Shown here: positions 9,323 to 52,537 of the stretch, piece after piece
Numbering within the stretch: the first letter of the stretch is position 1
How the letters are laid out: each line of letters starts with the position of its first letter
Notes under the pieces: model-generated
Databases searched by the model: none
Seen by the model: only the letters and a program-made list of their open reading frames with translations
What the model was told of the DNA's origin: nothing
Program-made: the position numbers and the translations under genes
Origin: Acidimicrobiia bacterium
GTDB lineage: Bacteria; Actinomycetota; Acidimicrobiia; IMCC26256; JAMXLJ01
Assembly (NCBI GenBank): GCA_035651955.1
Contig: DASRES010000031.1
Span: 12,184-76,183 of the forward strand
Length of the DNA: 64,000 bases
Direction of reading: 5' to 3'

Positions 9323-9389
9323 GGTTCAGCTCCTCATTCGTATACCGGTCGAATCTACCCACGTTCGGTGGCATCCGGACGCCGGTCGC

Positions 9390-9516: not shown

Positions 9517-10608
9517 ATGGACTTCGAGTTGTCGGAGGATCAGCTCGCGCTGCGTGACGGGGCGCGGGAGCTGCTCGACGGGCTCGCGCCGACGTCGCGC
9601 GTGCGCGGCGTCGTCGAGGCGGGCGGCGGCTACGACGCCGAGCTGTGGGCGGCGATGGTCGAGCAGGGCTGGACGGCGCTCGAGCTGCCCGAGTCGTCGG
9701 GTGGGCTCGGGCTCGGGACCGTCGAGACGGCCGTCCTCCTCGAGGAGGTCGGCCGCCACGTCGCTCCCGCGCCGTTCCTCTCGACGGTGCTGGCGCTCGG
9801 CGCGTTGCACCGCGCCGGCCACGACGAGCGCGTCGGCGATCTCCTCGCGACCGGGTCGATCGCGTGCATCGCGTGGAGTGCGGCGCGCGACGCCGTCCGT
9901 GCGGCACGCGATGGTGACGCGTGGGTGCTGAGCGGGCGTCCGGATCCCACGTTGTACGCGCCGTCGGCGTCTCTGGCGGTCGTGTTCGCGCTCGACGGTG
10001 ACGACGTGCCCGGACTGTTCGCCGTCGATCTCGACGCCGTCGACCGTCCCGCACGGGAGCCGGCGATCGACCAGACGCGCGAGCTCGGATGGCTCACCTT
10101 CGACCGGACGCCGGCGGTACGCCTCGGTGGCGCCGACGCCGTCGACACGCTCCTCGACCGCGGCGCGGCCGGCCTCTCCGCCGAGATGCTCGGCAGCGCG
10201 TCACGCGCGCTCGACATGGCGGTCGAGTACGCGAAGGACCGCGTGCAGTTCGGGCGGCCGATCGGCAGCTTCCAGGCCGTCAAGCACCGCTGCGCCGACA
10301 TGCTCGTCGACGTCGAGGGCATGCGCTCAACCGCGTACTGGGCCGCGTGGTGCATCGGCGCGGACGACCCGGACGCGTCCGTGAGCGCGTCGACCGCGAA
10401 GGTGTGGTGCTCCGACGCGGGGAAGCGCGTGATGGCGTCCGCGCTGCAGGTGCACGGCGGCGTCGGGTTCACCTGGGAGCACGACCTGCACCTGTTCCTC
10501 AAGCGCACGCAGCTCGACCAGCTGACCTTCGGCGACGCCGCGTTCCATCGCCGGCGGCTCGCGGCCATGCTCCGGCCGAGGGTCGAGGCCGGCGAGAGCG
10601 TCATCTGA
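9517..10608 (+). CDS. Acyl-CoA dehydrogenase
   Basis: ACAD C-terminal motifs (FQAVKHRCADM, VHGGVGFTWEHDLHL). Confidence 0.9.
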   Translation: MDFELSEDQLALRDGARELLDGLAPTSRVRGVVEAGGGYDAELWAAMVEQGWTALELPESSGGLGLGTVETAVLLEEVGRHVAPAPFLSTVLALGALHRAGHDERVGDLLATGSIACIAWSAARDAVRAARDGDAWVLSGRPDPTLYAPSASLAVVFALDGDDVPGLFAVDLDAVDRPAREPAIDQTRELGWLTFDRTPAVRLGGADAVDTLLDRGAAGLSAEMLGSASRALDMAVEYAKDRVQFGRPIGSFQAVKHRCADMLVDVEGMRSTAYWAAWCIGADDPDASVSASTAKVWCSDAGKRVMASALQVHGGVGFTWEHDLHLFLKRTQLDQLTFGDAAFHRRRLAAMLRPRVEAGESVI

Positions 10609-10624
10609 TCGCACCCACCCTCGT

Positions 10625-10670
10625 GCGTTGGGTCGTTTTGTCGGCATAGCGACGACAAACGACCCAACGC
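10625..10670 (+). repeat. 46-nt hairpin repeat, copy 1 (terminator-like)
   Basis: GCGTTGGGTCGTTTTGTCGGCATAGCGACGACAAACGACCCAACGC: 18-bp stem with one bulge. Starts 16 nt after the ACAD stop, between convergent genes. Near-identical inverted copy at 18976-19021. Confidence 0.7.
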
Positions 10671-10674
10671 AGCG

Positions 10675-12183
<1,509 letters not shown>

Positions 12184-12191
12184 CGGTCGCG

Positions 12192-13409
12192 TCAGCCGAC
12201 GAGCGGGTTGCGCCAGCCCGCGCTCACGGTCGTCGCACCCTTCACGACGTTCGAGCCGATGAAGTTGCGCTGGATCTCGACGGTTCCCGCGCCGATGCAC
12301 AGCCCGCGGATGTCGCGATACGCGCGCTCGACGGGGTACTCGCGGCTGTACCCGTAGCCGCCGAGGAGCTGGATCGCCTCGTCGCACACGAACTTCGCGG
12401 CGAGGTTCGCGGCGGACTTCGCCATCGCGGTCTCGAGCGCCGGCGGAGTGCCGTGTGGTCCGGCGAGGTGCACCGCGCGTTGCAGCAGCAGGCGCGCGCT
12501 CTCGAGCTGCGTCGCCATGTCCGCGAGCTTCCACTGCAGTCCCTGCAGCTTCGCGAGCGGCTGCCCGCCGATCGTCCGCTCGTTCACGTAGCGCACCGCG
12601 TACTCGAACGCGCCTTGCGCGGCACCCAGGCACATCGCCGCGTTGCCGCACCGTTCGTGGTTGATGTGCGAGATCAACGTCTTGAACGCGTCGCTGTTCG
12701 ACGGGTCGCCCGCGAGGAGCACGTCGCCGGGTTCCACGCGCACGCCGTCGAACGCGAGCTCCGCCTCGCTCGTGCCGCGTAGCCCCATCTTCTCGTGCGT
12801 CCCCGCGACGCTGACGCCGTCCGACTCGAGGTCGACGACGACCGCGCCGATGCCCTTCGCGCCCTCGCTGCCCGGGAAGCGGCACCACACGAGGCACGCG
12901 CGGGCCTTGTGGCCGCCCGTCACGTAGTTCTTGTACGCGTCGAGGCGGTAGCCGTCGCCGTCGGGCGTCAGGCGGGCGCGCATGTTCGTGACCGCCGAGC
13001 CCGCCTCGCTCTCGCTGATGCCGATGCAGAACAGCGCCTCGCCCGTCGCGGCCATCGGCAGCCACCGCTCCTTGAGCCCGTCGCTGCCGAGGTGCTCGAT
13101 CGCGCGCGGCGGTCCGTTGAAGATGAGCTGGGCCAGGATGGCGGACGACACGTCGACCCGCGCGAGCTCCTCGAGCACGATCGACGACTCGACGTCGCCC
13201 ATCCCCGCGCCGCCGTAGCGCTCGCCGATCGTGATGCCGAACAGCTCGGCCTTGCGCAGCGCGTCCCAGGACGCCTGCGGGAACTCCTCGGTCTCGTCCC
13301 AGTGACGCGCCATCGGTGCGAGCTCACGCTCCGCGACGTCGCGCGCCAGCTTGCGCAGGGCTTGGCGGTCGTCGTCCTCGGCAAAGGGATCGGTTCCGTG
13401 TGAGGCCAC
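12192..13409 (-). CDS. Acyl-CoA dehydrogenase
   Basis: ACAD motifs (GGYGYSREYPVERAYRDIRGLCIGAGTVEIQRNFIG). GTG 13409 preferred over ATG 13490, which would place the CDS across a conserved intergenic palindrome. Confidence 0.85.
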   Translation of the reverse strand: MASHGTDPFAEDDDRQALRKLARDVAERELAPMARHWDETEEFPQASWDALRKAELFGITIGERYGGAGMGDVESSIVLEELARVDVSSAILAQLIFNGPPRAIEHLGSDGLKERWLPMAATGEALFCIGISESEAGSAVTNMRARLTPDGDGYRLDAYKNYVTGGHKARACLVWCRFPGSEGAKGIGAVVVDLESDGVSVAGTHEKMGLRGTSEAELAFDGVRVEPGDVLLAGDPSNSDAFKTLISHINHERCGNAAMCLGAAQGAFEYAVRYVNERTIGGQPLAKLQGLQWKLADMATQLESARLLLQRAVHLAGPHGTPPALETAMAKSAANLAAKFVCDEAIQLLGGYGYSREYPVERAYRDIRGLCIGAGTVEIQRNFIGSNVVKGATTVSAGWRNPLVG

Positions 13410-13441
13410 GGCTGGTGAGCGTACCCAGCACGGGCTCGAAC

Positions 13442-13457
13442 CTGACGGCCCCGTCAG
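13442..13457. promoter_or_regulatory. Palindrome CTGAC-GGCCCC-GTCAG (site 3)
   Basis: Exact CTGAC-N6-GTCAG in the divergent ACAD/aldehyde dehydrogenase intergenic region. Confidence 0.55.
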
Positions 13458-13579
13458 CACCCGCCCGCCATTCTGGGAAGCGTCAACCACACACTGTGTG
13501 TCTGAGGCTTCACAGAACGCCCGGCCGGGGGCGGCGGTAGATTGACCGGACGGTCGAGTTCGCGAGCGAGGGAGCTCCC

Positions 13580-15001
13580 ATGCAGGATCGCGACAAGCTC
13601 TACATCGACGGGTCGTGGGTGCCCTCCGCGGGCAGCGACACGATCGACGTCATCAACGCGGCCACCGAGGAGGTGATGGGCCGCGTCCCCGACGGGACGC
13701 CGGCCGACGTCGACCAGGCCGTCGCCGCGGCCAGGCGCGCGTTCCCCGCGTGGAGCGCGACACCGGTCGACGAGCGCGCCAAGTACCTGCAGCGCCTGTC
13801 CGAGGGCCTCGGCGCGCGCAGCGACGAGATCGCCGCGACCGTCAGCGGCGAGGTCGGCATGCCGCTGATGTGGTCGAAGATGATCCAGGCCGGCCTGCCC
13901 ACCGCGGTGATGGGCAGCTACGTCGACATCGCGAACAACTTCACGTTCGAGGAGCAGGTCGGCAACTCCCTCGTCGTGCGCGAGCCCGTCGGCGTCGTCG
14001 GCTGCATCACCCCGTGGAACTACCCGCTCCACCAGATCGTCGCGAAGGTCGCGCCCGCGCTCGCCGCCGGCTGCACCGTCGTGTTGAAGCCGAGCGAGGT
14101 CGCGCCGCTGAGCGCGTTCATCCTCGCCGAGATCGTCGACGACGTCGGCCTGCCGCCGGGCGTGTTCAACCTCGTGTGCGGGACCGGCAAGACCGTCGGT
14201 GAGGCGATCGCGTCGCACCCCGACATCGACATGGTGTCGTTCACCGGCTCGACACGCGCGGGCAAGCGCGTCGCCGAGCTCGCGGCGCAGACGGTGAAGC
14301 GCGTCGCGCTCGAGCTCGGCGGGAAGTCGCCGTTCGTGATCCTGCCCGGTGCGGACGTCGACGCCGCGGTCACCGCGGGCATCGGCAGCTGCTACATGAA
14401 CTCGGGCCAGACGTGCATCGCGTGGACGCGGATGCTCGTGCCGCGCGCGCAGCACGACGAGATCGTCGCGAAGGCGAAGGAGATCGCCGAGGGCTTCGCG
14501 CTCGGCGACCCGGCCGACGAGACGCACATGGGCATCGGTCCCGTCATCTCCGACGCGCAACGCAAGCGCGTCCGGAAGTACATCAAGAAGGGGATCGAGG
14601 AGGGCGCGACGCTCGTCACCGGTGGCCCCGAGAAGCCGAGGGGCTTCCGCAAGGGCTACTACGTGAAGCCGACCGTCTTCGCGAACGTGCGCAACGACAT
14701 GACGATCGCGCAGGAGGAGATCTTCGGCCCGGTGCTGTCGATCATCCCCTACGACGACGAGGAGGACGCGATCCGCATTGCCAACGACACCGTCTATGGG
14801 CTGCACGCGGGCGTGTTCGGCCCGGACGACGAGTCCGCGATGCGTGTCGCGCGGCGGTTGCAGGCGGGCCAGGTCGACATCAACGGCCAGAAGTTCAACC
14901 CGCTCGCGCCGTTCGGGGGCTACAAGCAGTCGGGGAGCGGTCGCGAGCTCGGCCAGTACGGGCTCGAGGAGTTCCTCGAGGTGAAGTCGCTGCAGCTCTA
15001 G
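13580..15001 (+). CDS. NAD(P)-dependent aldehyde dehydrogenase
   Basis: [18 protein letters not shown] and the catalytic-Cys motif [13 protein letters not shown] upstream of the ATG. Confidence 0.95.
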
Positions 15002-15025
15002 CAGCGGCACCGCGCGAGCGGCAGC

Positions 15026-16150
15026 GTGCGGACAACGGCACGACTACGCATGGATCGACGCGGTCGCCGCGGCGTCGGGTTCGCCGCCGCGGCGACCGTC
15101 GCGCTCGTTGCCGTGCTCGCGGGTTGCGCGTACACCAACCCGGTCTCCGCACCACCCGATCCGGCCGGCCTGCCCGACCCGTTCGTCGTCCTCGTCAACG
15201 GCGTGTACCACGCGTACACGACGAACGGTCCCGACGTGGACCACCCGACGATGAACATCCAGCACGTCACGTCGACCGACCTCGTGCACTGGAGCGCGCC
15301 GACGGACGTCCTGCCGACGCTGCCGTCGTGGGCGGTCGCCGGGCGGACGTGGGCGCCGAGCGTCCTCGTGCGCGGCGGCGCGTCGCCGACCTACGTCCTG
15401 TACTTCACGGCCCAGCCCGCGGACCGCGCCACGAACGGCACGCACTGCATCGGCACGGCCGTCGCGTCGACACCGGACGGGCCGTTCACGCCGCGTGCGA
15501 CGCCGCTCGTGTGCCAGACGGACCACAACGGTGCGATCGATCCGAGCGCGTTCGTCGATCCCGTGAACGGGCAGGCGTTCCTGTTCTGGAAGAGCGAGGA
15601 CAACCTGTTCGTTCCCGCGCGCCCGACGATCATCTGGGCGCAACCGCTCTCCGCCGACGGACTGTCGTTCGCGAGCGGCTCGGCGCCGTCGGCGGTCATG
15701 ACGGCGTCCTCGAACTGGGAGCACGGTCAGATCGAGGCCCCGGCGATGACGTACGACGCGGCGAGTGGTCGCTACGTCGTCTTCTACGCCGGGCACTACT
15801 GGTACAACGAGCCCGCGTACGGCACCGGGTGGGCGGTCTGCACACGCACCGCGACGGGGTTCGCCGCCGGGTCCTGCACCCGAGGCCAGTCCACGCAGTG
15901 GATCGCGTCGACGGCGCACGCGTGTGCGCCCGCGGGCGTGGAGGTGTTCTCCGACAACGCCGGCTACCGCTGGCTCGCGTACCACGCGTACGTGGGACCG
16001 GCCGATCCGTCGACGGGGAAGTGCACCGGCGCGCGGAAGCTCCGCATCGACAAGCTCTGCTTCGCCAACGGCGTCCCACGGACGAACGCGCCGTCGACGG
16101 GCGCGCAGACCCTCACGCGGACCGCGAACTGCGCGACCGACATCCCGTAG
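15026..16150 (+). CDS. Glycoside hydrolase family 43-like lipoprotein
   Basis: Lipobox LAGC after a basic/hydrophobic leader. GH43 propeller motifs DPFVV, WAPSV, DPSAFVD, IEAPAM. Alternative ATG start at 15050. Confidence 0.8.
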   Translation: MRTTARLRMDRRGRRGVGFAAAATVALVAVLAGCAYTNPVSAPPDPAGLPDPFVVLVNGVYHAYTTNGPDVDHPTMNIQHVTSTDLVHWSAPTDVLPTLPSWAVAGRTWAPSVLVRGGASPTYVLYFTAQPADRATNGTHCIGTAVASTPDGPFTPRATPLVCQTDHNGAIDPSAFVDPVNGQAFLFWKSEDNLFVPARPTIIWAQPLSADGLSFASGSAPSAVMTASSNWEHGQIEAPAMTYDAASGRYVVFYAGHYWYNEPAYGTGWAVCTRTATGFAAGSCTRGQSTQWIASTAHACAPAGVEVFSDNAGYRWLAYHAYVGPADPSTGKCTGARKLRIDKLCFANGVPRTNAPSTGAQTLTRTANCATDIP

Positions 16151-16179
16151 CGGCCTCCGCCGCGCGCGGCCGGCCGAAC

Positions 16180-16195
16180 CTGACTACCGTGTCAG
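16180..16195. promoter_or_regulatory. Palindrome CTGAC-TACCGT-GTCAG (site 4)
   Basis: Exact CTGAC-N6-GTCAG, 39-54 nt upstream of the P450 ATG. Confidence 0.55.
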
Positions 16196-16233
16196 GGTCA
16201 CGCGGATCGTCACGCGCAGGGGGTCCCGCTCCG

Positions 16234-17424
16234 ATGACGTACGACATCGAGACCGAGTACCGCGAGATCGACTTCTTCACGGGGCAGCCGTACGGGATGT
16301 GGGAGCGGGCCCGCTCGGAGTGCCCCGTGATCCGTCACGAGTCGTCTGCGTTCGACCATCGCCCGAACTACCAGATCACCCGCTTCGACGACTGCGAGAA
16401 GGTGCTGCGCGACTGGGAGACGTTCTCGTCGTCGATCAACGGGGAGCAGATCGGTCAGTACATGGGCGAGCTGATCCTCGCGATGAACGGCAAGGAGCAC
16501 CGCCAGTACCGCAACCTCGTCGCCAAGGCGTTCCGCGCGTCGGTGCTGGAGCGCTGGGACGCCGAGCTCGTCGCGCCAGTCGTCAACGAGCTGCTCGACC
16601 GGATCGCGCCACTCGGTCGCGCCGACCTCGTGCGCGACCTGACGACCAAGTACCCGGTCCAGGTGATCTGCGGCATCGTCGGTGTGCCGCTCGCGGACCA
16701 CGAGCAGTTCCACCGGTGGGCCGAGGAGATCAACACGGGACCGCTGCACCCCGACGTCGGCATGGCCGCGTCGCGTGCGATGCGCGCCTACCTCGAGCCG
16801 ATCGTCGAGGACCGGCGGCGCAACCCCGGCGGCGACCTCATCAGCGAGCTCGTGACCGCGGAGATCGACGGCGAGCGTCTCACCGACGAGAAGATCTACG
16901 GGTTCCTCCGCCTGCTCCTGCCCGCGGGTGCGGAGACGACGTTCCGCGTGCTCGGCAACTGCCTCACCGCGCTGCTGACGCACACCGACGTGATGGCGCG
17001 TGTGCGCGACGACCGCGACCTGATCCCCGCGGTCATCGAGGAGACGTTGCGCTGGGAGACGTCCGTGACGATGGTGTCGCGGGTGACGACGCACGACGTC
17101 GAGGTCGCGGGTTGCCCCATCCCGGGCGGGTCGCCCGTCAACGTCGTCACCGCGTCCGCGAACCACGACGAGGACCGTTGGCCGGATGCCGACGAGTGGC
17201 GCATCGACCGCGAGCCGAAGCCGCACCTCGCGTTCGGGACCGGTCCGCACCAGTGCCTCGGGATGCACCTCGCCCGGCTCGAGCTGCGCGTCGCGCTCAA
17301 CGCCGTGCTCGACCGGCTCCCGAACCTCCGGCTCGACCCCGACCGGCCGGCGCCCAGCATCCAGGGCCTCGCGTTCCGCGGTCCGGCGGCGCTCGACGTC
17401 CTGTTCGACCCGGTTCCCGCGTAA
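16234..17424 (+). CDS. Cytochrome P450
   Basis: Haem-thiolate loop FGTGPHQCLGMHLA and ExxR (ETLRWE). ATG 16234 lies within a 1003-aa composite ORF. Confidence 0.95.
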   Translation: MTYDIETEYREIDFFTGQPYGMWERARSECPVIRHESSAFDHRPNYQITRFDDCEKVLRDWETFSSSINGEQIGQYMGELILAMNGKEHRQYRNLVAKAFRASVLERWDAELVAPVVNELLDRIAPLGRADLVRDLTTKYPVQVICGIVGVPLADHEQFHRWAEEINTGPLHPDVGMAASRAMRAYLEPIVEDRRRNPGGDLISELVTAEIDGERLTDEKIYGFLRLLLPAGAETTFRVLGNCLTALLTHTDVMARVRDDRDLIPAVIEETLRWETSVTMVSRVTTHDVEVAGCPIPGGSPVNVVTASANHDEDRWPDADEWRIDREPKPHLAFGTGPHQCLGMHLARLELRVALNAVLDRLPNLRLDPDRPAPSIQGLAFRGPAALDVLFDPVPA

Positions 17425-17433
17425 CGCGCGCGT

Positions 17434-18186
17434 TCAGCCGGCCGGCAGAGCGTTGACGAGCACGGACCCCGCGTGCGAGCGCGCGCGGACGGAGCGCGAA
17501 GCGTTCGGGTCGGTCGCGACGCCGATGCGCACGTCGCCGCCGTCCGTGCGCGCGTCCACGCGGTACGGACCACCGGGCAGCACGACCTCGACCGCGCCCG
17601 CGTTGCTCGTCGCGTCGACGTCGTCGGGCACGCTGGCGAACACCAGCCGGACGTGGCCGGCGTCGGTGTGCGCCTTCACGCACCCGCTCCGCGCGCCGTC
17701 CACCTCGATCGAGCCTGCGTCGCTGTGCAGCTGCAGCGCGCCCGCGCAACCGTTGACCGCGATGCGGCCCGCGTTGCTGGCGAGGTCGACGTCGCCGCGC
17801 ACGCCGTCGACCGCGAGCGGGCCTGCGGCCGTCCGTGCACGGACACCGGTGCCGGCGGGGACGACCAGCTCGTAGTCGATCCACCACCAGCCCTCCAGCG
17901 GGCCGCGCGGTGGGGTGACCGAGATCTGCAGCGTCGTCCCGGCGCGCGTCTCCCGCGTCTGCGGCCGCCGTCGTCCGTAGCGCATGTGCCGATGCACGGT
18001 GAGGCGGGCGCCGTCGTGCGCCACGACGCGGACGCTGCCGGCGTCGATCTCGACGTCGACGTGCTCGATGCCGTCGAACGTCAGCTCGTCGTCGGCGACG
18101 CGCCGTGTGTTGCGCGCGACGACGACCGCGACGAGCGCGCCGGTGAACAGCACGAACACGACGAGCGCCGCGATCGCCGCTGCCAC
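17434..18186 (-). CDS. Membrane-anchored DUF4097-like (putative adhesin fold) protein
   Basis: N-terminal TM helix, then repeated beta-strand units (DAGSVRV, NAGRIAV, DAGSIEV, DAGHVRL, NAGAVEV, HAGSVLV). Confidence 0.7.
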   Translation of the reverse strand: MAAAIAALVVFVLFTGALVAVVVARNTRRVADDELTFDGIEHVDVEIDAGSVRVVAHDGARLTVHRHMRYGRRRPQTRETRAGTTLQISVTPPRGPLEGWWWIDYELVVPAGTGVRARTAAGPLAVDGVRGDVDLASNAGRIAVNGCAGALQLHSDAGSIEVDGARSGCVKAHTDAGHVRLVFASVPDDVDATSNAGAVEVVLPGGPYRVDARTDGGDVRIGVATDPNASRSVRARSHAGSVLVNALPAG

Positions 18187-18219
18187 CTGCCCCGCCCCTG
18201 CCCGCTCCGCCTGCGCCCG

Positions 18220-18942
18220 TCAGGACCCGTCGCCGAACATCGTCAGCCACTGGTCGAGCGTCTTGAGCCGGAACACGTAGTTGCGCCGGCGCGTCTCGCC
18301 CATCGTCGCGGACGGTTCGGGTGAGTAGAGGTGACCGGGGTAGAGGACGGTGTCGTCGGGGATCTTGGCGAGCCGCTGCGTGAGGCTCTCGTACATCTGC
18401 GTCGCGTCGCCGCCGGGCAGATCGGTGCGACCGCAGCCGTCGAGGAAGAGCGTGTCGCCCGCGACGAGCCGGCCGTCGAGCAGGAAGCACTGGCTTCCCG
18501 GCGTGTGGCCGGGCGTGTGCAGGAACGTGATCGGGATCGCGCCGACCTCGAGCACGTCGCCGCCGTCGTGCAGCACGAGGTCGCTGTCGGACGCGCCCGT
18601 CACGCGCTTCACGCCCCACGCCTCGTCCCGCTGGACGTGGACGGGCACGCCGCCGTCGATCGCCAGCAGCTCGCGCACGCCCTGGATCGGGTAGCCCATC
18701 AGGTCGCCGCCGACGTGGTCCGGATGCCAGTGCGTGGCGAGCGCGCCCGTCACGCGCATGCCGTCGCCCCGTACGACGTCGACGAGCTCCGCGACGCCGT
18801 ACGCCGGGTCGACGAGCACCGCGTCGCCCGTCTCGCGGTCGCCGATGACGTACGCGAAGTTGACCATCTGGCGCGCGATCGGGTCGTCGCGCGCGAAGTC
18901 GCGTCCCGCGAGCAGCTGCCGGAAATAGAGACGCTCGGTCAC
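18220..18942 (-). CDS. MBL-fold metallo-hydrolase (glyoxalase II-like)
   Basis: HWHPDHVGG metal-binding motif and TPGHTPGS. GTG start. Confidence 0.85.
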   Translation of the reverse strand: MTERLYFRQLLAGRDFARDDPIARQMVNFAYVIGDRETGDAVLVDPAYGVAELVDVVRGDGMRVTGALATHWHPDHVGGDLMGYPIQGVRELLAIDGGVPVHVQRDEAWGVKRVTGASDSDLVLHDGGDVLEVGAIPITFLHTPGHTPGSQCFLLDGRLVAGDTLFLDGCGRTDLPGGDATQMYESLTQRLAKIPDDTVLYPGHLYSPEPSATMGETRRRNYVFRLKTLDQWLTMFGDGS

Positions 18943-18975
18943 CGAACCGATGCTATCGGCGCCCGCCCGCCGCCT

Positions 18976-19021
18976 CCGTTGGGACGTTTTGTCGTCGCTA
19001 CGCCGAGAAACGTCCCAACGC
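18976..19021 (-). repeat. 46-nt hairpin repeat, copy 2 (inverted orientation)
   Basis: On the minus strand it reads GCGTTGGGACGTTTCTCGGCGTAGCGACGACAAAACGTCCCAACGG. Starts 17 nt after the alcohol dehydrogenase stop. About 40 of 46 positions identical to copy 1 by hand alignment with one gap per arm, with a compensatory T:A to A:T swap in the stem. Confidence 0.7.
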
Positions 19022-19038
19022 GGCTGGGGTTCGGGCAG

Positions 19039-20274
19039 TCACCGGAAGTCGAAGGCGCACTTGATCGCGCCGGTGTCGTGCTGACGGGCGATCGTCGTCC
19101 AGGCGTCGCGCCAGTCGTCGAGGCGGAACGTGTGCGTCAGCATCGCGCTCACGTCGACGCGCCCCGAGCGGACGAGGTCGAGGTAGTGCTCGATCGCGTG
19201 CTTGCGAACGCCTTCCACCTCTTCGACACCGAACGCGTTCGACCCGACGATGCGCGCCTCCTTGAAGTACAGCGGCGACCACTCGAACCGGCCGGGCGCG
19301 TTCACACCGCTCACGACGATCGACCCGCGGGTCGCCATCACGCGCAACGCCAGCTCGATCGTCTTCGGCGAGCCGATCGTGTCGTAGACGACGTCGACGA
19401 ATCCGGGGTGCGTCACCGGCAGGCCCGTCCACGGCGCGCGCAGGACACCGCCCGACCACTCCGCGAGCGCGACGACGACGGCCTCGTCGCCCTGCTCGGA
19501 GTCGACGACGAGCGCGCCGAGCTTCCGCGCGAGCGCCTGTTGCGCGGGATGCCGGACGACCGCGGCGACGTCGACCGTCGGGTACAGCGCGCGCAGGATC
19601 GCGATCGCGGTCGTGCCGAGCGCGCCGCCGCCCCACACGACGGCCTTCCCGCCCGTCGGCGGCGGGTTGCGCACGATCCCGTGCAGCGACACCGCGAACG
19701 GGTCCGCGAGGACGGCGACCTCGTCGGGTACGTCGTCGGGCACGGGGATCGCCATGGAATCGTGCGCGGGGAGCTTCTCGGCGAACCCGCCCGTCGCGTC
19801 GGACGAGTTCCCGGTGTGGATGCCCTGCGCGAGCCGGCCGTCGTGGAAGTGCCAGCACTGCGAGTAGTCGCCCTCCTGGCACGGCGGGCACATCGGCGTG
19901 ATGCCACGCGGCCCGCACGACAGCCAGCAGTTCAGCAACACGCGCTGACCGCGCTCGACGCCGCGCGCCTCCGGTCCCGTCTCGACGACGTCCGCCACGA
20001 CCTCGTGCCCCAGGACTTGGGGGAACGAGATGAACGCGGTCATCGACATGTCGGACGCGTCGCCGCCCGTGTCCATCAGGACCTGCTTCGTGTCGGATCC
20101 GCAGATCCCGGTCATGCGCGTCTGCAGGACGACCCAGTCGGGACCGAGCAGCTGCGGATCGGGGACGTCCTGCAGCGCCATCGGCGTGGCGGCGAGGTTG
20201 CGCAGCAGCGGGTCGGCGTCCGCGGGCGGTGCCTCGACGGGCCCGGGGTCGACGCCGAACACCAGTGCCTTCAT
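19039..20274 (-). CDS. Zinc-dependent alcohol dehydrogenase (MDR family)
   Basis: GICGSD, GHEVV and the Rossmann motif GGGALG. Confidence 0.9.
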   Translation of the reverse strand: MKALVFGVDPGPVEAPPADADPLLRNLAATPMALQDVPDPQLLGPDWVVLQTRMTGICGSDTKQVLMDTGGDASDMSMTAFISFPQVLGHEVVADVVETGPEARGVERGQRVLLNCWLSCGPRGITPMCPPCQEGDYSQCWHFHDGRLAQGIHTGNSSDATGGFAEKLPAHDSMAIPVPDDVPDEVAVLADPFAVSLHGIVRNPPPTGGKAVVWGGGALGTTAIAILRALYPTVDVAAVVRHPAQQALARKLGALVVDSEQGDEAVVVALAEWSGGVLRAPWTGLPVTHPGFVDVVYDTIGSPKTIELALRVMATRGSIVVSGVNAPGRFEWSPLYFKEARIVGSNAFGVEEVEGVRKHAIEHYLDLVRSGRVDVSAMLTHTFRLDDWRDAWTTIARQHDTGAIKCAFDFR

Positions 20275-20294
20275 TCGCTGATCCCCCCCTTTTG

Positions 20295-20310
20295 CTGACA
20301 GCGGCGTCAG
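20295..20310. promoter_or_regulatory. Palindrome CTGAC-AGCGGC-GTCAG (site 5)
   Basis: Exact CTGAC-N6-GTCAG in the divergent region between the alcohol dehydrogenase and the ApbE module. Confidence 0.55.
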
Positions 20311-20393
20311 CCTACCGAACGCTGCACGACGATTTACCTGCTCTTGCAGCCCCGTCGCGCTGCCTCTCAGGCTGCCGGTCGATCCTTGCCGGC

Positions 20394-37818: not shown

Positions 37819-37830
37819 CCTCTCACGTTC

Positions 37831-39033
37831 ATGCCCGCGCACGACTGGGGTCGCGCGAAGCCCCTCGACGACATCGCGGGTGACGTCGCGATCGCGGGCA
37901 TCGGCGAGACCGCGTACACGAAGGCGTCGGGCCGCACCGCGAAGGAGATCGGCGCGGAGGCGGCCGAGCGCGCGATCGCCGACGCGGGGCTCGATCCCGC
38001 GGACGTCGACGGGCTCACGTACTCGGGCGCGTTCGCGGACTTCGACGTCGCCGCCTTCCACGAGCACTTCGGCACGAGTCACGACATGTGGTCGTCGCCG
38101 TGGGGCGGCGGCATGACGTGGGCCGGGACCGCGCCCTACCTCGCGGCGAGGGCGATCCGCGACGGGCGTGCCCGGCACATCCTCAACGTGTTCCCGGTCG
38201 CGTGGGCGACGCAACGCTCGTCGATGACGGGCGGGCCGGGGGAGACGCACGCGACGCAGCCGCTCAAGCAGAACCTCGAGGTGCCCTTCGGCTGGTTCCC
38301 GCAGCCCGTCTACTTCGCCACGATCGCGCGCCGGCACATGCTCGAGTTCGGCACGACGCCCGAGCAGCTCGGCGCGATCGCGGTCGCGGCACGCCGCCAC
38401 GCGAACCTCAACCCGGACGCCGTGATGCACGGGCGCCCGATGACGATCGACGCCTACCTGTCCTCGCCCCTCCTGGCCGATCCGCTCCGGCTGCTCGATT
38501 GCTGCCTCATCTCCGACGGCGGCGCCGCGTTCCTCACGACGTCGACCGAGCGCGCGCGCGACCTGCGGCAGCCGCCGGTGATCGTCGCCGGGGTCGCGGA
38601 GGCCGAGCTCACGGGACGGAACGCGCACTGGAGCCAGCAGCGCGAGCTCACGTCGACACCGCAGGTGTTCTCCGCACCGGCCGCGTTCGCGATGGCGGGC
38701 ATCACGCCGTCCGACGTCGACGTGCTCACGGTCTACGACCCCTTCACGATCGTGTCGCTCATGCAGATCGAGGACATGGGGTTCTGCGAGAAGGGGGAGG
38801 GAGGCGCGTTCGTCGACGGTGACACGCTCTTCCACGACGCCGGGAGGCTGCCGTTCAACACGCACGGCGGGCTGCTGAGCCACGCGTACGTGCTGGGCAT
38901 CGCCCACGTCGTCGAGGTCGTGAAGCAGCTCCGCGGGACCGCCGCCGCGCAGGTTCCCGGTGCCGAGGTCGGCGTCTACGGCGGCTACACCGGCGCGACG
39001 ACGTCCACGCTCGTGTTGCGGAAGGACGTGTGA
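37831..39033 (+). CDS. Thiolase-like protein (SCP-x / lipid-transfer-protein type)
   Basis: Thiolase-like N- and C-terminal halves (VAIAGIGETAYTK, NTHGGLLSHAYVLGIAHVVE). Confidence 0.85.
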   Translation: MPAHDWGRAKPLDDIAGDVAIAGIGETAYTKASGRTAKEIGAEAAERAIADAGLDPADVDGLTYSGAFADFDVAAFHEHFGTSHDMWSSPWGGGMTWAGTAPYLAARAIRDGRARHILNVFPVAWATQRSSMTGGPGETHATQPLKQNLEVPFGWFPQPVYFATIARRHMLEFGTTPEQLGAIAVAARRHANLNPDAVMHGRPMTIDAYLSSPLLADPLRLLDCCLISDGGAAFLTTSTERARDLRQPPVIVAGVAEAELTGRNAHWSQQRELTSTPQVFSAPAAFAMAGITPSDVDVLTVYDPFTIVSLMQIEDMGFCEKGEGGAFVDGDTLFHDAGRLPFNTHGGLLSHAYVLGIAHVVEVVKQLRGTAAAQVPGAEVGVYGGYTGATTSTLVLRKDV

Positions 39034-42681: not shown

Positions 42682-42813
42682 GGCACCATCATGGCGTTCG
42701 GTTCGGGTGTCGATGCTGTAAGCTGACGCAACTCTGCACAGGGCCAGCGTCGTCCCGGGCAGGTCCCCCCGTTGGATGCGCCGCACCACGGCGTGTTCGC
42801 CCGGAGCTACGTC

Positions 42814-45800
42814 ATGACGACCGGCAGGACCCAGGGTCTCTACGACCCCTCGTTCGAGCACGACGCGTGCGGCGTCGCGTTCGTCGTCGACATGAAGGGG
42901 CGGCCGACGCACGCGATCGTCGAGCAGGGCATCCGCGCGCTCTGCCATCTCGAGCACCGCGGCGCGGTCGGCGCGGAGGTCAACACCGGCGACGGCGCCG
43001 GGATCCTGCTCCAGGTCCCGGACCGCTTCCTGCGCGACGTCGTCGACTTCGAGCTCCCGGCCCCGGGCGAGTACGCGACCGGCATCGCGTTCGTCCCCGC
43101 GCAGACGGCCGACGTCGGCGAGACCGAGGCCGCGTTCGAGCGCCTGGCCGAGGAAGAGGGGTTGCGCGTGCTCGGCTGGCGTGCGGTTCCCGTCGACGAC
43201 TCGATGATCGGCTCGTCGTCGAAGGACGTCGAGCCCACATTCCGGCAGGTCTTCGTCGCCGGCGCGGCGTCGGATCGCGGCCCTGGCCTCGCCGGGATGG
43301 ACCTCGAACGGCGCGCGTTCGTGCTCCGGAAGCGGGCCGAGCACGAGACGGACGTCTACTTCCCGAGCCTCTCCGCGCGGACGCTCGTCTACAAGGGGAT
43401 GCTCACGGCGCCGCAGCTGCGCGACTTCTACCCCGACCTCGCCGACGAGCGGGTCGAGAGCGCGCTCGCGCTCGTCCACTCACGCTTCTCGACGAACACG
43501 TTCCCCGCGTGGCCGCTTGCGCACCCGTACCGCTACATCGCGCACAACGGCGAGATCAACACGCTCAAGGGCAACCGCAACTGGATGCGCGCCCGCGAGT
43601 CGCTGCTGCACTCCGACCTGATCCCCGGTGATCTTTCGCGTGCGTACCCGATCTGCACACCGGCCGCGAGCGACTCCGCCAGCTTCGACGAGGTGCTCGA
43701 GCTGCTCCACCTGGGCGGCCGCTCGCTCCCGCACGCGGTGCTGATGATGATCCCGGAGGCCTGGGAGAACCACCAGGCGATGGGCGACGAGAAGCGCGCC
43801 TTCTACTCGTTCCACGCGTCGGTCATGGAGCCCTGGGACGGTCCCGCGTCGATCGCGTTCACCGACGGCACGGTCATCGGCGCGGTGCTCGACCGTAACG
43901 GCCTGCGTCCGTCGCGCTACTGGGTGACGTCCGACGACCTCGTGATCATGGCGTCGGAGGTGGGCGTGCTCGACGTCGACCCCGCGACCGTCGTGCGCAA
44001 GGGCCGGCTCGAGCCGGGCCGCATGTTCCTGGTCGACACCGCCCAGGGCCGCATCGTCGAGGACGACGAGATCAAGGCGCAGCTCGCCGCGCAGCACCCG
44101 TACGGCGAGTGGCTCGACAAGGGTCTCGTCCATCTCGACGATCTCGCGCCGCGCACCACGCTCACGCCGATGCACGCGTCGGCGGTGCGCCAGCAGCGGC
44201 TGCACGGCTACACGCAGGAGGAGCTCCGGATCCTCGTCGCGCCGATGGCGCGCACCGGTGGCGAGGCGCTCGGCTCGATGGGCAACGACACGCCGATCGC
44301 GGTGCTGTCCAGCCGGCCGCGCATGCTGTTCGACTACTTCACGCAGCTGTTCGCGCAGGTGACGAACCCCCCACTCGACGCGATGCGCGAGGAGCTCGTC
44401 ACGTCGCTCCGCCAGACGATCGGTCCCGAGTCGAACCTCCTCGAGCCCGGGCCCGAGAGCTGCCGGCAGATCGTGCTGCCCCACCCCGTCATCGACGACG
44501 AGGACCTCGCCAAGCTCCGCTACATCGACGAGGACGGCGACGACATCGGCTTCAAGGCCGTCACCGTCGACGCGCTCTACCCGGTCGTCGGCGGCGGCGA
44601 CGCGCTCCACCGCGCGATCGAGCGGATCCGGCGGCAGGTGAGCGACGCGATCGCGGGCGGCGCGAACCTCGTCATCCTCTCGGACCGCTACGCGACCGAG
44701 GAGCTGGCGCCGATCCCGTCGCTCCTCATCACGTCGGCGGTGCACCACCACCTGATCCGCGAGAAGACGCGCACGCGCGTCGGCCTCGTGGTCGAGGCGG
44801 GCGACGCGCGCGAGGTCCACCATCTCGCGCTGCTCATCGGGTACGGCGCGAGCGCGGTGAACCCGTGGTTGGTGTTCGCGTCGCTCGACGACCTGATCCG
44901 CGAGGGTCACCTGCAGGGCGTGAACCGGCGGAAGGCGATCAAGAACTACATCAAGGCCGCCGGCAAGGGGATCCTCAAGATCATGTCGAAGATGGGGATC
45001 TCGACGGTCGCGTCCTACACGGGCGCGCAGGTCTTCGAGGCGGTCGGCCTCGGCGACGAGCTCGTCGAGGAGTACTTCACCGGCACGACGAGCCGTCTCG
45101 GCGGCATCGACCTCGACGTGATCGCGGCGGAGGTCGCGGCGCGCCACGCGCTCGCGTACCCGGCCCGTCCCGAGGAGCTCGCGCACCGTGAGCTCGAGGT
45201 CGGCGGCGAGTACCAGTGGCGGCGCGAGGGCGAGTACCACCTCTTCAACCCGGACACCGTGTTCCGGCTGCAGCACTCGACGCGCACGAAGCGCTACGAG
45301 ATCTTCAAGGAGTACACGCGTCTCGTCGACGAGCAGTCGAAGCAGCTCGCGACGCTGCGCGGTCTCTTCGAGCTCAAGCTCGGCGAGCGGCCGCCCGTCC
45401 CGATCGACGAGGTCGAGCCGGTCTCCGAGATCGTCAAGCGCTTCTCGACGGGTGCGATGAGCTACGGCTCGATCTCGCAGGAGGCGCACGAGACGCTCGC
45501 GATCGCGATGAACCGCCTCGGCGGCAAGTCGAACACGGGCGAGGGCGGCGAGGACGCCGACCGGTTCGTGCCCGACCCGAACGGCGACCTCCGTCGCTCG
45601 GCGATCAAGCAGGTCGCGTCGGGCCGCTTCGGCGTGACGAGCGAGTACCTCGTCAACGCGGACGACCTGCAGATCAAGATGGCGCAGGGCGCGAAGCCGG
45701 GCGAGGGTGGGCAGCTGCCCGGGCACAAGGTCTACCCGTGGATCGCGAAGACGCGGCACTCGACGCCGGGCGTCGGGCTCATCTCGCCGCCGCCGCACCA

Positions 45801-47358
45801 CGACATCTACTCGATCGAGGACCTGAAGCAGCTCATCCACGACCTCAAGAACGCGAACCCGCGCGCGCGGGTCCACGTGAAGCTCGTCGCCGAGGTGGGT
45901 GTCGGGACGGTCGCGGCCGGCGTCGCGAAGGCGCACGCCGACGTCGTGCTGATCTCCGGTCAGGACGGCGGCACCGGCGCGTCACCGCTCACGTCGATCA
46001 AGCACGCCGGCGCGCCATGGGAGCTCGGGCTCGCGGAGACGCAACAGACGCTGTTGCTCAACGGGCTGCGCGACCGGATCGTCGTCCAGACCGACGGTCA
46101 GCTGAAGACCGGTCGCGACGTCGTGGTCGCCGCGCTGCTCGGCGCGGAGGAGTTCGGCTTCGCGACCGCGCCGCTCGTCGTGAGCGGCTGCGTGATGATG
46201 CGCGTCTGTCACCTCGACACCTGCCCAGTCGGGATCGCGACGCAGAACCCGGAGTTGCGCAAGAAGTTCAGCGGCAAGCCCGAGTTCGTCGTGAACTTCT
46301 TCGAGTTCGTCGCGCAGGAGGTGCGCGAGCTGCTCGCGCAGCTCGGGTTCCGCAGCGTCGCCGAGGCGGTCGGGCACGCGGAGATGCTCGACGTGCGGAA
46401 GGCCGTCGATCACTGGAAGGCGTCCGGGCTCGACCTCACGCCGATCCTGTACGTCCCCGAGTACGACCCGGCCCAGGACCGGTACTGCACGAAGAGCCAG
46501 GACCACGGGCTCGACAAGGCGCTCGACAACACGCTGATCCAGCTGTGCGAGGGCGCGCTCGAGGACGGCCAGCCCGTCTCGCTCGAGCTGCCGATCCGCA
46601 ACGTCAACCGCACGGTCGGGACGATGCTCGGCTACGAGCTGACGAAGCGCTACGGCGGCGACGGGCTCCCCGACGACACCATCCAGGTGCACTTCACGGG
46701 GTCGGCGGGGCAGAGCTTCGGCGCGTTCGTGCCGCGTGGCATCACGTTGCGGCTCGAAGGCGACGCCAACGACTACACGGGCAAGGGCCTGTCGGGCGGG
46801 CGGATCGTCGTCTTCCCGCCGAAGGAGTCCGCGTTCGTCGCCGAGCACAACATCATCGCCGGGAACGTCGTGCTCTACGGCGCGACCGGCGGCGAGGCGT
46901 TCTTCCGCGGCGTCGTGGGCGAGCGGTTCTGCGTCCGCAACTCGGGGGCGACCGCAGTCGTCGAGGGGGTCGGCGACCACGGGTGCGAGTACATGACGGG
47001 TGGTCGCGTCGTCGTGCTCGGTTCGACCGGTCGGAACTTCGGTGCCGGCATGTCGGGCGGGATCGCGTACGTGTACGACCCCGACGGCGACTTCTACACG
47101 CGGCTGAATCGCGAGATGGTCGACCTCGAGCAGCTCGACGAGGACGACCAGGAGTGGTTGCGCGAGATCGTGCGCCGGCACCACGAGGAGACCGGCTCCG
47201 CGGTCGCGCGCCGCATGCTCGAGTCGTGGCGCCACGAGGTGCAGCGCTTCGCGAAGGTCATGCCGACCGACTACAAGCGCGTCCTCGAAGCCGCCCGCAT
47301 CGCCGAGGAGCGCGGCCTGTCCGTCGACGAAGCCGTCATGAGCGCGGCCCACGGCTAG
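42814..47358 (+). CDS. gltB: Glutamate synthase large subunit
   Basis: Ntn amidotransferase Cys ([10 protein letters not shown]) plus central, FMN and C-terminal GXGXG domains across about 1514 aa. Confidence 0.95.
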
Positions 47359-47430
47359 CGCGATCTCTCATTGAGAGAAATCGGTTGCTGGGCGGTACTC
47401 AGGTTTCAATGAAACGAGCGAGAAGACAGC

Positions 47431-48879
47431 GTGGGTGAGGTCACGGGGTTCATGAAATACCGGCGGGAGACGCCGAAGCGGCGCCCGGTCGAGCTGCGCG
47501 TGCGCGACTGGCACGAGGTGTACGAGCCGTTCCCCGCCGAGCGCCTGCAGACGCAGGCCGCGCGCTGCATGGACTGCGGCATCCCGTTCTGCCACCAGGG
47601 CTGCCCGCTCGGGAACCTGATCCCGGAGTGGAACGACCTCGTGTACCGCGACGACTGGCGCGAGGCGAGCGAACGACTCCACGCGACGAACAACTTCCCG
47701 GAGTTCACGGGCCGGCTGTGCCCCGCGCCGTGTGAGGCCTCGTGCGTCCTCGGCATCAACGAGGACCCGGTCACGATCAAGCAGGTCGAGGTCACGATCG
47801 CGGAGCGCGCCTGGGAGGAGGGCTGGCTCCCGCCGGTGACGCCGACGGTCAAGACGGGTCGGCGCGTCGCCGTCGTCGGCTCCGGTCCCGCGGGGCTCGC
47901 CGCCGCGCAGCAATTGACGCGCGCGGGTCACGACGTCGTCGTGTTCGAGCGCGCGGACCGCATCGGCGGGCTGCTGCGCTACGGCATCCCCGAGTTCAAG
48001 ATGGAGAAGCGGTTCCTCGACCGCCGCCTCGACCAGATGCGCGCCGAGGGCACCGAGTTCCGTGTGAACGCGAATGTCGGTGTCGACGTCGCGGTCGACG
48101 AGCTGCGCGCGTCGTTCGACGCAATCGTGCTCGCGGGCGGCGCGACGCAGTGGCGCGACCTCCCGATCCCGGGACGTGACCTTGCGGGGATCCACCAGGC
48201 GATGGAGTACCTCCCGTGGGGCAATCGCGTGCAGGAGGGCGACATCACCGAGGCGCCGATCACCGCGCACGGCAAGCGAGTGGTGATCATCGGCGGCGGT
48301 GACACGGGCGCGGACTGCCTCGGCACGGCGATCCGGCAGGGCGCGACGTCGGTGCACCAGTTCGAGATCATGCCCCGCCCTCCCGACGAGCGGGACCCGA
48401 GCACACCGTGGCCGATGTGGCCGCTCATGTTCCGGACGTCGTCCGCGCACGAGGAGGGCGTCGAGCGCGTCTTCTCGGTGAACACCGAGTGCTTCGTCGG
48501 TGACGACGACGGGCGCGTCCGCGCGTTGCGCGCCCACGAGGTGCAGCGCGTGGCCCACGACGGGCGCACCGCGTTCGAGAAGATCGAGGGCACGGACTTC
48601 GAGCTGCCGTGCGAGCTCGTCCTCCTCGCCCTCGGGTTCACCGGGCCGCAGCGGGGCGGGATGCTCGAGCAGCTCGGCGTCGACCTGGACGCCCGCGGCA
48701 ACGTGGCCCGGGACGAGCACTGGGCGACGAACGTCGACGGCGTGTTCGTGTGCGGCGACATGGGCCGGGGCCAGAGTCTCATCGTGTGGGCAATCGCCGA
48801 GGGGCGCTCGTGCGCGGCCGCCGTCGACCGCTGGCTCGCGGGCGAGTCTGCGCTGCCCGCGCCGGTGACGGCAGTCTGA
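47431..48879 (+). CDS. gltD: Glutamate synthase small subunit
   Basis: GFMKYRRETPKRRPV N-terminus, Fe-S cysteines (CMDCGIPFC, CPAPCEASC) and FAD/NAD motif VAVVGSGPAGLAAA. Confidence 0.95.
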   Translation: MGEVTGFMKYRRETPKRRPVELRVRDWHEVYEPFPAERLQTQAARCMDCGIPFCHQGCPLGNLIPEWNDLVYRDDWREASERLHATNNFPEFTGRLCPAPCEASCVLGINEDPVTIKQVEVTIAERAWEEGWLPPVTPTVKTGRRVAVVGSGPAGLAAAQQLTRAGHDVVVFERADRIGGLLRYGIPEFKMEKRFLDRRLDQMRAEGTEFRVNANVGVDVAVDELRASFDAIVLAGGATQWRDLPIPGRDLAGIHQAMEYLPWGNRVQEGDITEAPITAHGKRVVIIGGGDTGADCLGTAIRQGATSVHQFEIMPRPPDERDPSTPWPMWPLMFRTSSAHEEGVERVFSVNTECFVGDDDGRVRALRAHEVQRVAHDGRTAFEKIEGTDFELPCELVLLALGFTGPQRGGMLEQLGVDLDARGNVARDEHWATNVDGVFVCGDMGRGQSLIVWAIAEGRSCAAAVDRWLAGESALPAPVTAV

Positions 48880-51530: not shown

Positions 51531-52157
51531 GTGCACGAGCTGACGCCTGAGGAGGTGCGCGTTCTCGGTTGTCTGGTCGAGAAGCAGCGCACCGTTCCCG
51601 ACACGTATCCGTTGAGCCTCAACGCGCTGCGTAGCGCGTGCAACCAGACGACGAACCGTGACCCGGTCGCGTCGTACGACGAGGCGACGATCGAGGCCGC
51701 GCTCGACCGTCTGCGTGACCGCGGCCTGTCGCGGCGCGGTGTCACATCGGGCAGTCGCGTCATCAAGTACTGGCAGCTGCTCGACGAGTCGCTCGGTCTC
51801 GACGACGCGCAGACGGCGTTGCTCGCCGTGCTCATGCTGCGCGGCCCCCAGACGCCGGGAGAGCTCAAGGGGCGCGCCGACCGGCTGCACCACTTCGAGG
51901 CGCTCGACGACGTCGTCGCGACGCTCGACGCGCTCGCGGCGCGCGACGAGCCGCTCGTTGCCCGTCTCGCCCGTGAGCCCGGTCAGAAGGAGACGCGGTA
52001 CGCCCAGCTGCTCGGCACCGACGCACCCGCGTCGCCGGCGCCCGTCGCGGATCCCGCCGAACGCGAGCGGGACGGACTCGCCGAGCTACGGGCCGAGATC
52101 GGTGAGCTCCGCGCCGAGGTTCGGGCGCTGCGGGAGCGGGTCGACCGCCTAGGGTGA
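51531..52157 (+). CDS. YceH/DUF480 family protein
   Basis: LTPEEVRVLGCLVEKQRTVPDTYPLSLNAL N-terminus characteristic of DUF480. GTG start. Confidence 0.85.
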   Translation: MHELTPEEVRVLGCLVEKQRTVPDTYPLSLNALRSACNQTTNRDPVASYDEATIEAALDRLRDRGLSRRGVTSGSRVIKYWQLLDESLGLDDAQTALLAVLMLRGPQTPGELKGRADRLHHFEALDDVVATLDALAARDEPLVARLAREPGQKETRYAQLLGTDAPASPAPVADPAERERDGLAELRAEIGELRAEVRALRERVDRLG

Positions 52158-52162: not shown

Positions 52163-52516
52163 ATGGAGAAGTTGCTCGTCTACTTCAATCCCGGCTGAGG
52201 CCAGGCGCGCGGCGCAGTGGACATCCTGCGCGAGCGAGGCGTCGAGTTCGACGTCGTCGAGTACCTGAAGACCCCGCCGGATCGCGTCACGCTGGAACGA
52301 ATCCTCGACCACATCCCCGACCCGCCGGCCGATCTCGTCCGCAAGGACAAGCGGTTCAAGGAGCTCGGGCTGGACGAGGCCGACTACCGGACCCGGAAGC
52401 AGGTCGTCGACGTGCTGCTCGCGCACCCCGAGCTCATGCAGCGACCTGTCGTGTTCCGCGGCGAGCGTGCGATCATCGCCCGCCCGTCCGACAAGGTGCT
52501 GGAACTGCTCGATTGA
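52163..52516 (+). CDS. ArsC (Grx-type arsenate reductase)/Spx-family protein with in-frame TGA at the catalytic Cys position (candidate selenocysteine, or pseudogene)
   Basis: ATG 52163 gives MEKLLVYFNPG-TGA(52196-52198)-GQARGAVDILRERG... This aligns with the ArsC pattern YHNPxCxxSR. The downstream RK.., NRP-like (MQRPVV) and RPS motifs are retained. The ORF track only shows the part from GTG 52217. Confidence 0.5.
52206..52236 (+). other. Hairpin downstream of the in-frame TGA (candidate bacterial SECIS-like element)
   Basis: Upper stem GCGCAG/CTGCGC (52212-52217 / 52226-52231) with 8-nt loop TGGACATC, and a lower stem with one mismatch and one bulge. The upper stem begins 13 nt after the TGA. 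Confidence 0.3.
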
Positions 52517-52537
52517 GCGAGACGAAGAGGAGCCTCG

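Follow-up and report, generated by a model that had tools for sequence, protein, structure and literature searches.

The locus described here raises the question of whether a UGA in the middle of a small reading frame is a stop, a mistake or a selenocysteine (Sec) codon and, if it encodes Sec, which part of the mRNA could cause it to be read that way. The locus was found in a stretch of 64,000 nucleotides from an Acidimicrobiia bacterium with a G+C content of 71.9%, which we call the window throughout. An ATG at position 52163 of the forward strand opens a frame that translates as MEKLLVYFNPG, reaches TGA at 52196-52198 and continues as GQARGAVDILRERGVEFDVV... until it closes with LELLD and the true stop, again a TGA, at 52517-52519. 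If the internal UGA (52196..52198, + strand) is read as selenocysteine, the gene (52163..52519, + strand) comprises 117 codons with Sec as codon 12. All that a sequence-only reading of the window had said about the start, the TGA and the continuing frame was found to be correct upon translation. The gene is located downstream of a DUF480 (YceH-like) gene (51531..52157, + strand; Pfam PF04337, E=4.9e-58) that ends with TGA 52155-52157. Only 5 nt lie between this end and the ATG at 52163, and both genes are probably co-transcribed. Gene callers use GTG 52217..52219 (+ strand) as start instead and thus deliver a product of 99 aa without the catalytic residue. In line with this, the nearest database proteins, P0001 among them, are 90-93% identical, all 99 aa long and all start after the TGA. 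The GTG start is an annotation artefact.

The family assignment of the 117-residue product was addressed by profile and alignment comparisons, for which Cys was put in at residue 12 when Pfam and TIGR00014 scores were computed. On the Pfam model ArsC (PF03960, ArsC/Spx/MgsR superfamily), where the cutoff is 24 bits, the protein scored 41.4 bits (E=1.8e-10, residues 7-114). Against the NCBIfam model TIGR00014, 'arsenate reductase (glutaredoxin)', it reached 98.8 bits, which is under the equivalog cutoff of 106.05. When R773 ArsC (1I9D/1JZW) was aligned with phmmer, its Cys12 coincided with the TGA and Arg60, Arg94 and Arg107 were found to be kept, while the nucleophile at position 12 and the three arginines are all invariant in an alignment of full-length homologs. 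Thus, the placement of the TGA on the catalytic Cys12 with three intact arginines, as proposed previously, is confirmed by both alignments. Judged by these residues, the active-site constellation is that of the Grx-coupled ArsC type. 'Arsenate reductase' would be a function assigned at the level of the family only, and a Pfam scan that covered the window's 40 main predicted genes revealed no ars genes.

The most trivial explanation would be a sequencing or assembly error that turned TGC or TGT into TGA, or a general reassignment or readthrough of UGA in this organism. Beyond its prior plausibility nothing speaks for such a scenario. The site is identical in contigs of the runs X1, X4 and X6, which represent three independent studies, namely one mine metagenome (24x) and two soil metagenomes (11x and 13x). 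Furthermore, the identical gene is found in the same gene order on a contig of the JGI metagenome 3300027773. In the diverged orthologs L001-L012, codon 12 is likewise TGA throughout, and the peptide upstream of it is the same in all of them, with synonymous changes only (TTG>CTG, AAT>AAC). A general reassignment is contradicted by the window itself, as UGA terminates the ArsC gene, the DUF480 gene and most other genes of the window. Since ArsC and DUF480 both stop at TGA, any recoding of codon 12 must be local. Consequently, we regard error or reassignment as hardly conceivable. In the region that corresponds to window position 52224, the soil metagenome of run X6 yielded in addition a second TGA-form ArsC (…GGC TGA GGC CAG TCC CGC GGC GTG CAG GAG…), so that several Sec-ArsC lineages coexist in that soil.

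A true TGA could still be the mark of a pseudogene, or the cell might produce just the 99-aa protein, N-terminally truncated, that databases annotate from GTG 52217. This is exactly what gene callers give, and no Sec machinery was found in the window (see below). However, comparison of the window gene with its orthologs L001 and L003 gave a dN/dS of 0.085-0.10 at a dS of ~0.3, so that a ratio of ~0.09 holds across the whole frame. The 11 codons before the TGA show two synonymous and no non-synonymous changes. The motif YxNPG in front of the TGA is invariant in 114 distinct sequences, and the 99-aa product would lack both strand 1 and the nucleophile. Moreover, an RNA structure that is specific for the TGA forms is maintained downstream of the codon, as detailed below. 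Stops or frameshifts elsewhere in the homologs would point to decay as well, but each of the at least ~145 TGA-form genes contains one in-frame stop and no second stop or frameshift was found among those listed. The gene is thus intact, as the sequence-only reading had suspected from its preserved motifs, and under purifying selection, and both the pseudogene and the truncated product appear very improbable. A deviation at the other end of the gene was observed in L001 and L002 (L001:10001-10342), where the ArsC stop is lost and the protein is extended by 14 residues (…LELLDQPDEEKPCDGCADR), overlapping the start of the next gene.

If the TGA encodes Sec, the same column should hold Cys in other members of the family. 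In the 80 genomes representing species in which a close homolog occurs, we found TGA at codon 12 in 36 cases (L001-L012 and the window included), TGC in 41 and TGT in one. The column thus alternates between 36 TGA and 42 TGC/TGT codons. Taking the matches of a TGA-form-specific DNA pattern (at least 120) together with the loci found earlier, at least ~145 TGA-form genes are known to us, 114 of them distinct, each with an intact frame of ~117 codons and the motif always NPG-U-G[KQ][SA]RG. Their hosts are labelled as Acidimicrobiia/Acidimicrobiales (including complete chromosomes, Ca. Microthrix and Ca. Poriferisocius), Binatia, Pseudomonadales/Gammaproteobacteria, Myxococcota, Verrucomicrobiales and others. 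Some labels are implausible: L195 (CAMBEL010000001.1) and L067/L150/L160/L178 carry TGA-form ArsC under names such as 'Bifidobacterium breve' or 'uncultured Enterobacteriaceae', yet the sequences themselves are of the kind usual in Acidimicrobiia or Binatia, and the record titles are probably mislabelled. The complete Binatia chromosome OX638322.1 comprises two TGA-form copies that encode an identical protein (L077/L126 and L082/L151, at about 5.14 Mb and about 0.086 Mb) and lie ~124 kb apart across the origin; they reflect either a duplication or a repeat introduced by the assembly.

Selenoproteins of this kind have been reported before. 'Arsenate reductase' (COG1393, UxxS) was described, with 14 sequences, as a new family predicted in the Sargasso Sea selenoproteome (Zhang, Fomenko and Gladyshev 2005, PMC1088965), and a 2026 review lists an 'arsenate reductase' selenoprotein family under TIGR00014 (PMC13188914). 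The statement of the sequence-only reading that ArsC-like selenoproteins occur in metagenomic surveys was therefore right. As the family has been recognized since 2005, the window gene adds a member to it and does not found a new one. Taken together, the alternation of Sec and Cys, a TGA and a preceding peptide that are both conserved across lineages, purifying selection, independent data sets and published precedent all support the proposal of a Grx-type ArsC with Sec in place of Cys12. We conclude that 52163-52519 is very likely a genuine selenocysteine-encoding gene of the ArsC family, a family that is already catalogued.

The gene order MMPL/DUF480/ArsC/ACAD, in which ACAD stands for acyl-CoA dehydrogenase, is kept in L001-L012 and L335. 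We considered DUF480 as a general functional partner of ArsC and rejected the idea, as it is adjacent in only 13 of the 145 listed TGA loci and in 7 of the 42 Cys loci. The DUF480-ArsC synteny is lineage-specific. Downstream of the acyl-CoA dehydrogenase, L001 (a 4.53-Mb contig) carries integrase, resolvase, AAA_25 and HTH genes at 11671-20342, and PNPOx, MDMPI and AraC-type genes occupy the matching position of the window; the block of L001 is probably a mobile-element insertion. Other parts of the window, 3146-13649 and 37819-39033, are rich in genes of fatty-acid and CoA metabolism. In total the window contains four acyl-CoA dehydrogenases (the one next to ArsC included), two thiolase-like genes, an enoyl-CoA hydratase and a family III CoA-transferase. 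The large and small subunits of glutamate synthase are encoded at 42727-48879.

Sec has to be made and decoded by a dedicated machinery. Neither SelA, SelB nor SelD was found in the 64-kb window by a Pfam scan of its 40 main predicted genes and by tblastn with E. coli probes, and tRNA genes, tRNA-Sec (selC) included, were absent from it as well. The earlier remark that no Sec machinery is visible in the window therefore held in Pfam, tblastn, tRNA and Rfam scans. The same was true for 1.8 Mb of flanking DNA around ArsC loci (tblastn, ARAGORN), and the 4,533,987-bp contig of the nearest relative (L001) yielded no SelD among the best 120 matches to an Acidimicrobiales SelD seed. Comparison of contigs of the runs X1, X4, X6 and X7 with Acidimicrobiales selD/selA loci by their depth profiles returned hundreds of fragments that could not be assigned; one X1 contig with a coverage of 25.8x vs 24.2x for the window is suggestive at most. 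An exact match to the window was not found among the species genomes. As a control of the probes, selA, selB and tRNA-Sec frequently turned up alongside the 120 listed selD loci that a DNA pattern had retrieved. In the Acidimicrobiales locus L267, selD adjoins selA, and the Acidimicrobiales MAG of L241 possesses a Sec-type selD with TGA at the catalytic codon. Of Sec-type selD loci, 39 among the 120 listed belong to Acidimicrobiia, and selA/B/C/D were reported from all 84 genomes of Actinomarina (bioRxiv 10.64898/2026.04.03.716425). In the MAG JAQWTI01 (Acidimicrobiales bacterium cluster2_bin.79), a TGA-form ArsC (L098) occurs together with a Sec-type selD (L376). Sec decoding thus takes place in the class Acidimicrobiia and in one MAG with a TGA-form ArsC.

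These observations also bear on the idea that recoding of the UGA does depend on SECIS and SelB but inserts cysteine, delivered by a Cys-charged tRNA that resembles tRNA(Sec), which would leave the protein free of selenium. According to the citing text in PMC8762117, such systems are described in some bacteria (Mukai 2016, PMC4833512; Vargas-Rodriguez 2018, PMC6103700). However, selD is common in Acidimicrobiia, often in its Sec form, and selA occurs as well. Furthermore, the Sec-type selD in the MAG with the TGA-form ArsC itself requires true Sec decoding. Cysteine could also be encoded directly, as 42 homologs do. Recoding to Cys thus seems quite unlikely, only slightly less so than a pseudogene, and we continue with selenocysteine as the probable product of codon 12.

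As to the structure that directs the decoding, the sequence-only reading had pointed to a GCGCAG/CUGCGC hairpin 13 nt past the TGA, which is indeed present in the MFE fold. This hairpin 1 (52206..52236, + strand) consists of an upper stem (52212-52217 / 52226-52231), an 8-nt loop (52218-52225, UGGACAUC) and a weak lower stem (52206-52208 / 52234-52236, + strand) that lacks covariation support. The bSECIS model demands a loop of 3-9 nt, a stem of 4-16 bp, a G within the first two loop bases, a distance of 16-37 nt from the UGA and an MFE <= -7.5. Formally hairpin 1 agrees with it, given its 8-nt loop, 6-bp stem, G at loop position 2 and 19-nt spacing, and the zone +5..+39 has an MFE of -15.2. 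Compared to dinucleotide shuffles the region is unremarkable (z=0.16 and 0.02). However, such shuffles do not discriminate at 72% GC, and we used permutation of synonymous codons within each gene instead. By this measure, the zone +5..+39 of the window obtained z=-1.69. The 114 distinct TGA forms gave a mean z of -1.60 with 98% below 0, while the 42 Cys forms gave a mean of 0.00 with 48% below 0, and in two control zones TGA and Cys forms did not differ. The structure at this position is therefore under selection that is specific for the TGA forms. A hairpin occurs there in every lineage, and its loop lies 16-24 nt from the UGA in 84 of 91 cases. The loop G, in contrast, is found in 43/91 only, and loop sequence and register vary. 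As far as the alignments tell, hairpin 1 is selected for structure only, not for sequence. A longer lower stem that would extend hairpin 1 right up to hairpin 2 (from +8/+40 inward) is conceivable but not claimed here, as covariation does not support it: its bases are fixed by the protein and present in Cys forms as well, and its third-position pair is unsupported.

The element that is conserved in sequence follows directly downstream. Over most of the gene, the third codon positions of the 114 TGA forms show an entropy of ~1.3-1.9 bits, while codons 27-29 drop to 0.07 bits. These codons belong to hairpin 2 (52238..52255, + strand), with a stem at 52238-52244 / 52249-52255 and the tetraloop A-GU-U at 52245-52248. 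Its 12-mer CGUCGAGUUCGA (C-GUC-GAG-UUC-GA; +42..+53; window 52240-52251), which occurs a single time in the window, is found in 107 of the 114 TGA forms, and the remaining 7 possess the variant GUCGCGUGCGA (GUC-GCG-UGC-GA). In Cys forms, residues 28-29 are among the most variable of the protein. Thus, it is the RNA that is constrained, and this constraint is linked to the TGA. Consistently, the sole consensus helix that RNAalifold detects in the 100 nt after the UGA is formed by +41-46 / +51-56, with the tetraloop at +47-50. All six pairs of this helix are present in 111/114 TGA forms vs 14/42 Cys forms, and GU at +48/+49 in 113/114 vs 3/42. At the outer positions of the loop, 107 sequences have A-U and 7 have C-G. 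Among 96 distinct sequences, 98% of cells are paired, compared to 8-63% if the partners are slid. There are 17 double-change cells vs 2.4 +/- 1.3 in shuffles (0/500 reach 17), and some of these double changes alter amino acids on both arms. Like hairpin 1, hairpin 2 is thus under TGA-form-specific selection. Two Cys-form genes keep the 12-mer (GUCGAGUUCGA) nevertheless: L047 (JAXDLK010000040.1, codon at 5035; TGT) and L069 (JACZXC010000043.1; TGC). In L047 it stands in the TGA-form context NPG-C-GQARG and the local fold is the strongest of all (z=-3.3). From their sequences, both appear to have switched from Sec to Cys recently and to retain a fossil SECIS.

With a loop that begins 46 nt past the UGA, hairpin 2 lies outside the range of 16-37 nt, while it agrees with the bSECIS model otherwise. 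Rfam gave no SECIS or tRNA-Sec match in the window, either at gathering thresholds or at E<=10, as expected for SECIS elements because those of bacteria are poorly represented there. In E. coli, GU in the apical loop (G23/U24 of fdhF) is the determinant for SelB (PMC8659212). The conserved GU of the tetraloop suggests that hairpin 2 is probably the SelB-binding part of the SECIS. Of the earlier proposal that hairpin 1 is the SECIS, the formal fit to the bSECIS model therefore stood, whereas the conserved loop G is missing and the sequence-conserved element turned out to be 52238-52255, immediately beyond the end coordinate (52236) given in that proposal.

Based on these results, we favour the following scenario. 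In an uncultured Acidimicrobiia bacterium of 72% GC from soil or a mine, UGA codon 12 is very likely decoded as Sec, replacing the nucleophilic Cys12 and yielding a Grx-type thiol/selenol reductase of 117 residues. As the same mRNA also carries an ordinary UGA stop, recoding must be local and depend on a signal. This signal may be a bipartite structure in the downstream coding sequence, composed of hairpin 1 (+8..+38) and, directly thereafter, hairpin 2 (+40..+57). The former is kept in structure and free in sequence, and the latter is almost invariant across phyla, the outer bases of its N-GU-N tetraloop showing covariation (A-U/C-G). SelB with GTP and Sec-tRNA(Sec) would bind hairpin 2 at its GU loop. 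By folding, hairpin 1 could take up ~30 nt and offset the linear distance of 46 nt, which would bring the SelB site near its canonical distance from the UGA in the A-site. Counting against such a spacer, its lower stem, which a spacer would favour, has no covariation support. We therefore propose only tentatively, rating it somewhat below an even chance, that ArsC selenoprotein mRNAs possess a distinct bipartite class of bacterial SECIS with a spacer hairpin and a SelB-binding N-GU-N hairpin whose loop lies 46 nt from the UGA.

Alternatively, hairpin 1 with its canonical spacing might itself be the SECIS that SelB binds, and hairpin 2 might serve otherwise, for instance in ribosome pausing, enhancement of recoding or stabilisation of the mRNA. 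All formal bSECIS criteria apply to hairpin 1 in the window, and its zone is selected for structure in TGA forms only. Its stem GCGCAG/CUGCGC is, in addition, the same as that of a GU-loop hairpin in the selD of L241. However, its loop G is not conserved, its loop sequence and register vary and RNAalifold finds no consensus helix there. The invariant GU and the covarying closing pair, which match the known SelB determinant, are in hairpin 2. This assignment of roles is thus rather unlikely in our estimation. The selD just mentioned is an observation in its own right: located on contig JAWKIL010000004.1 (L241:350-1390, - strand), it contains an in-frame TGA (FSHGAG-U-GCKL) followed by two tandem hairpins (+8..+26, then GGCGCAG-GUG-CUGCGCC), the second with a GU loop. 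This arrangement appears analogous to that of ArsC, and gene calling would truncate this selD too.

The results have consequences beyond the locus. In public protein collections, the close relatives are all annotated as a 99-aa 'arsenate reductase' without active site, while the correct product would be a 117-aa selenoprotein, and the same mis-annotation affects well over a hundred species genomes. Tools of the bSECISearch type would pick the wrong hairpin, as 46 nt is beyond the range of 16-37 nt. A conserved SECIS determinant outside the consensus spacing would be a clean, testable case and could improve selenoprotein gene finders. The bipartite SECIS would be conserved from Acidimicrobiia to Binatia and Gammaproteobacteria; if true, it would travel together with the gene and be recognized by SelB proteins that have diverged. 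Finally, a selenium-dependent reductase of the ArsC type in abundant soil and mine Acidimicrobiia would bear on the redox cycling of selenium and, with arsenate as candidate substrate, of arsenic.

Compared to known systems, the window protein aligns with R773 / E. coli ArsC over residues 2-116, with Cys12, Arg60, Arg94 and Arg107 all matched. It differs by Sec instead of Cys12, the relationship is distant (64.8 bits), the TIGR00014 equivalog cutoff is not reached and neither arsR, arsB nor ACR3 adjoins the gene. E. coli YfgD, an uncharacterised 'putative oxidoreductase', shares 36% identity over 113 residues, an N-terminal motif of the N-P-x-C-x-K-x-R type and the organization as a stand-alone gene that is not part of an ars operon. 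However, YfgD contains Cys, and no functional assignment follows from it. As the identity to YfgD is about as high as that to proven ArsC, arsenate is uncertain as the substrate. Another selenoprotein family with an ArsC-like fold, the 'arsenate reductase-like protein' NF041106, is characterized by UxxC, in contrast to UxxA/UxxS here, and an NCBIfam scan of the window protein gave no match to it at E<=0.01.

With the SECIS of E. coli fdhF and the bSECIS consensus, the window shares an in-frame stem-loop 3' of the UGA whose apical loop is small, has G then U at positions 2-3 and sits on a G-C-rich stem. In contrast to them, its GU loop begins 46 nt past the UGA, compared to 16-37 nt in the model and about 20 nt in fdhF. 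A bulged U is not evident, and the canonical position is taken by another hairpin, which is conserved in structure. With the 'arsenate reductase' family of the Sargasso Sea, the window gene shares the ArsC fold, Sec in place of the N-terminal catalytic Cys, widespread Cys homologs and a stem-loop after the UGA, and that family, too, is known from sequence alone. The invariant GU-tetraloop hairpin 46 nt downstream is absent from the portions of PMC1088965 and PMC13188914 that are accessible as text. Furthermore, the window gene originates from high-GC soil or mine Acidimicrobiia and not from marine plankton, and instead of UxxS it has U-G-Q-A with Ala at +3, while most of its relatives here possess U-G-K/Q-S. 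To this known family our analysis adds a corrected gene model and a conserved GU-tetraloop hairpin with non-canonical spacing.
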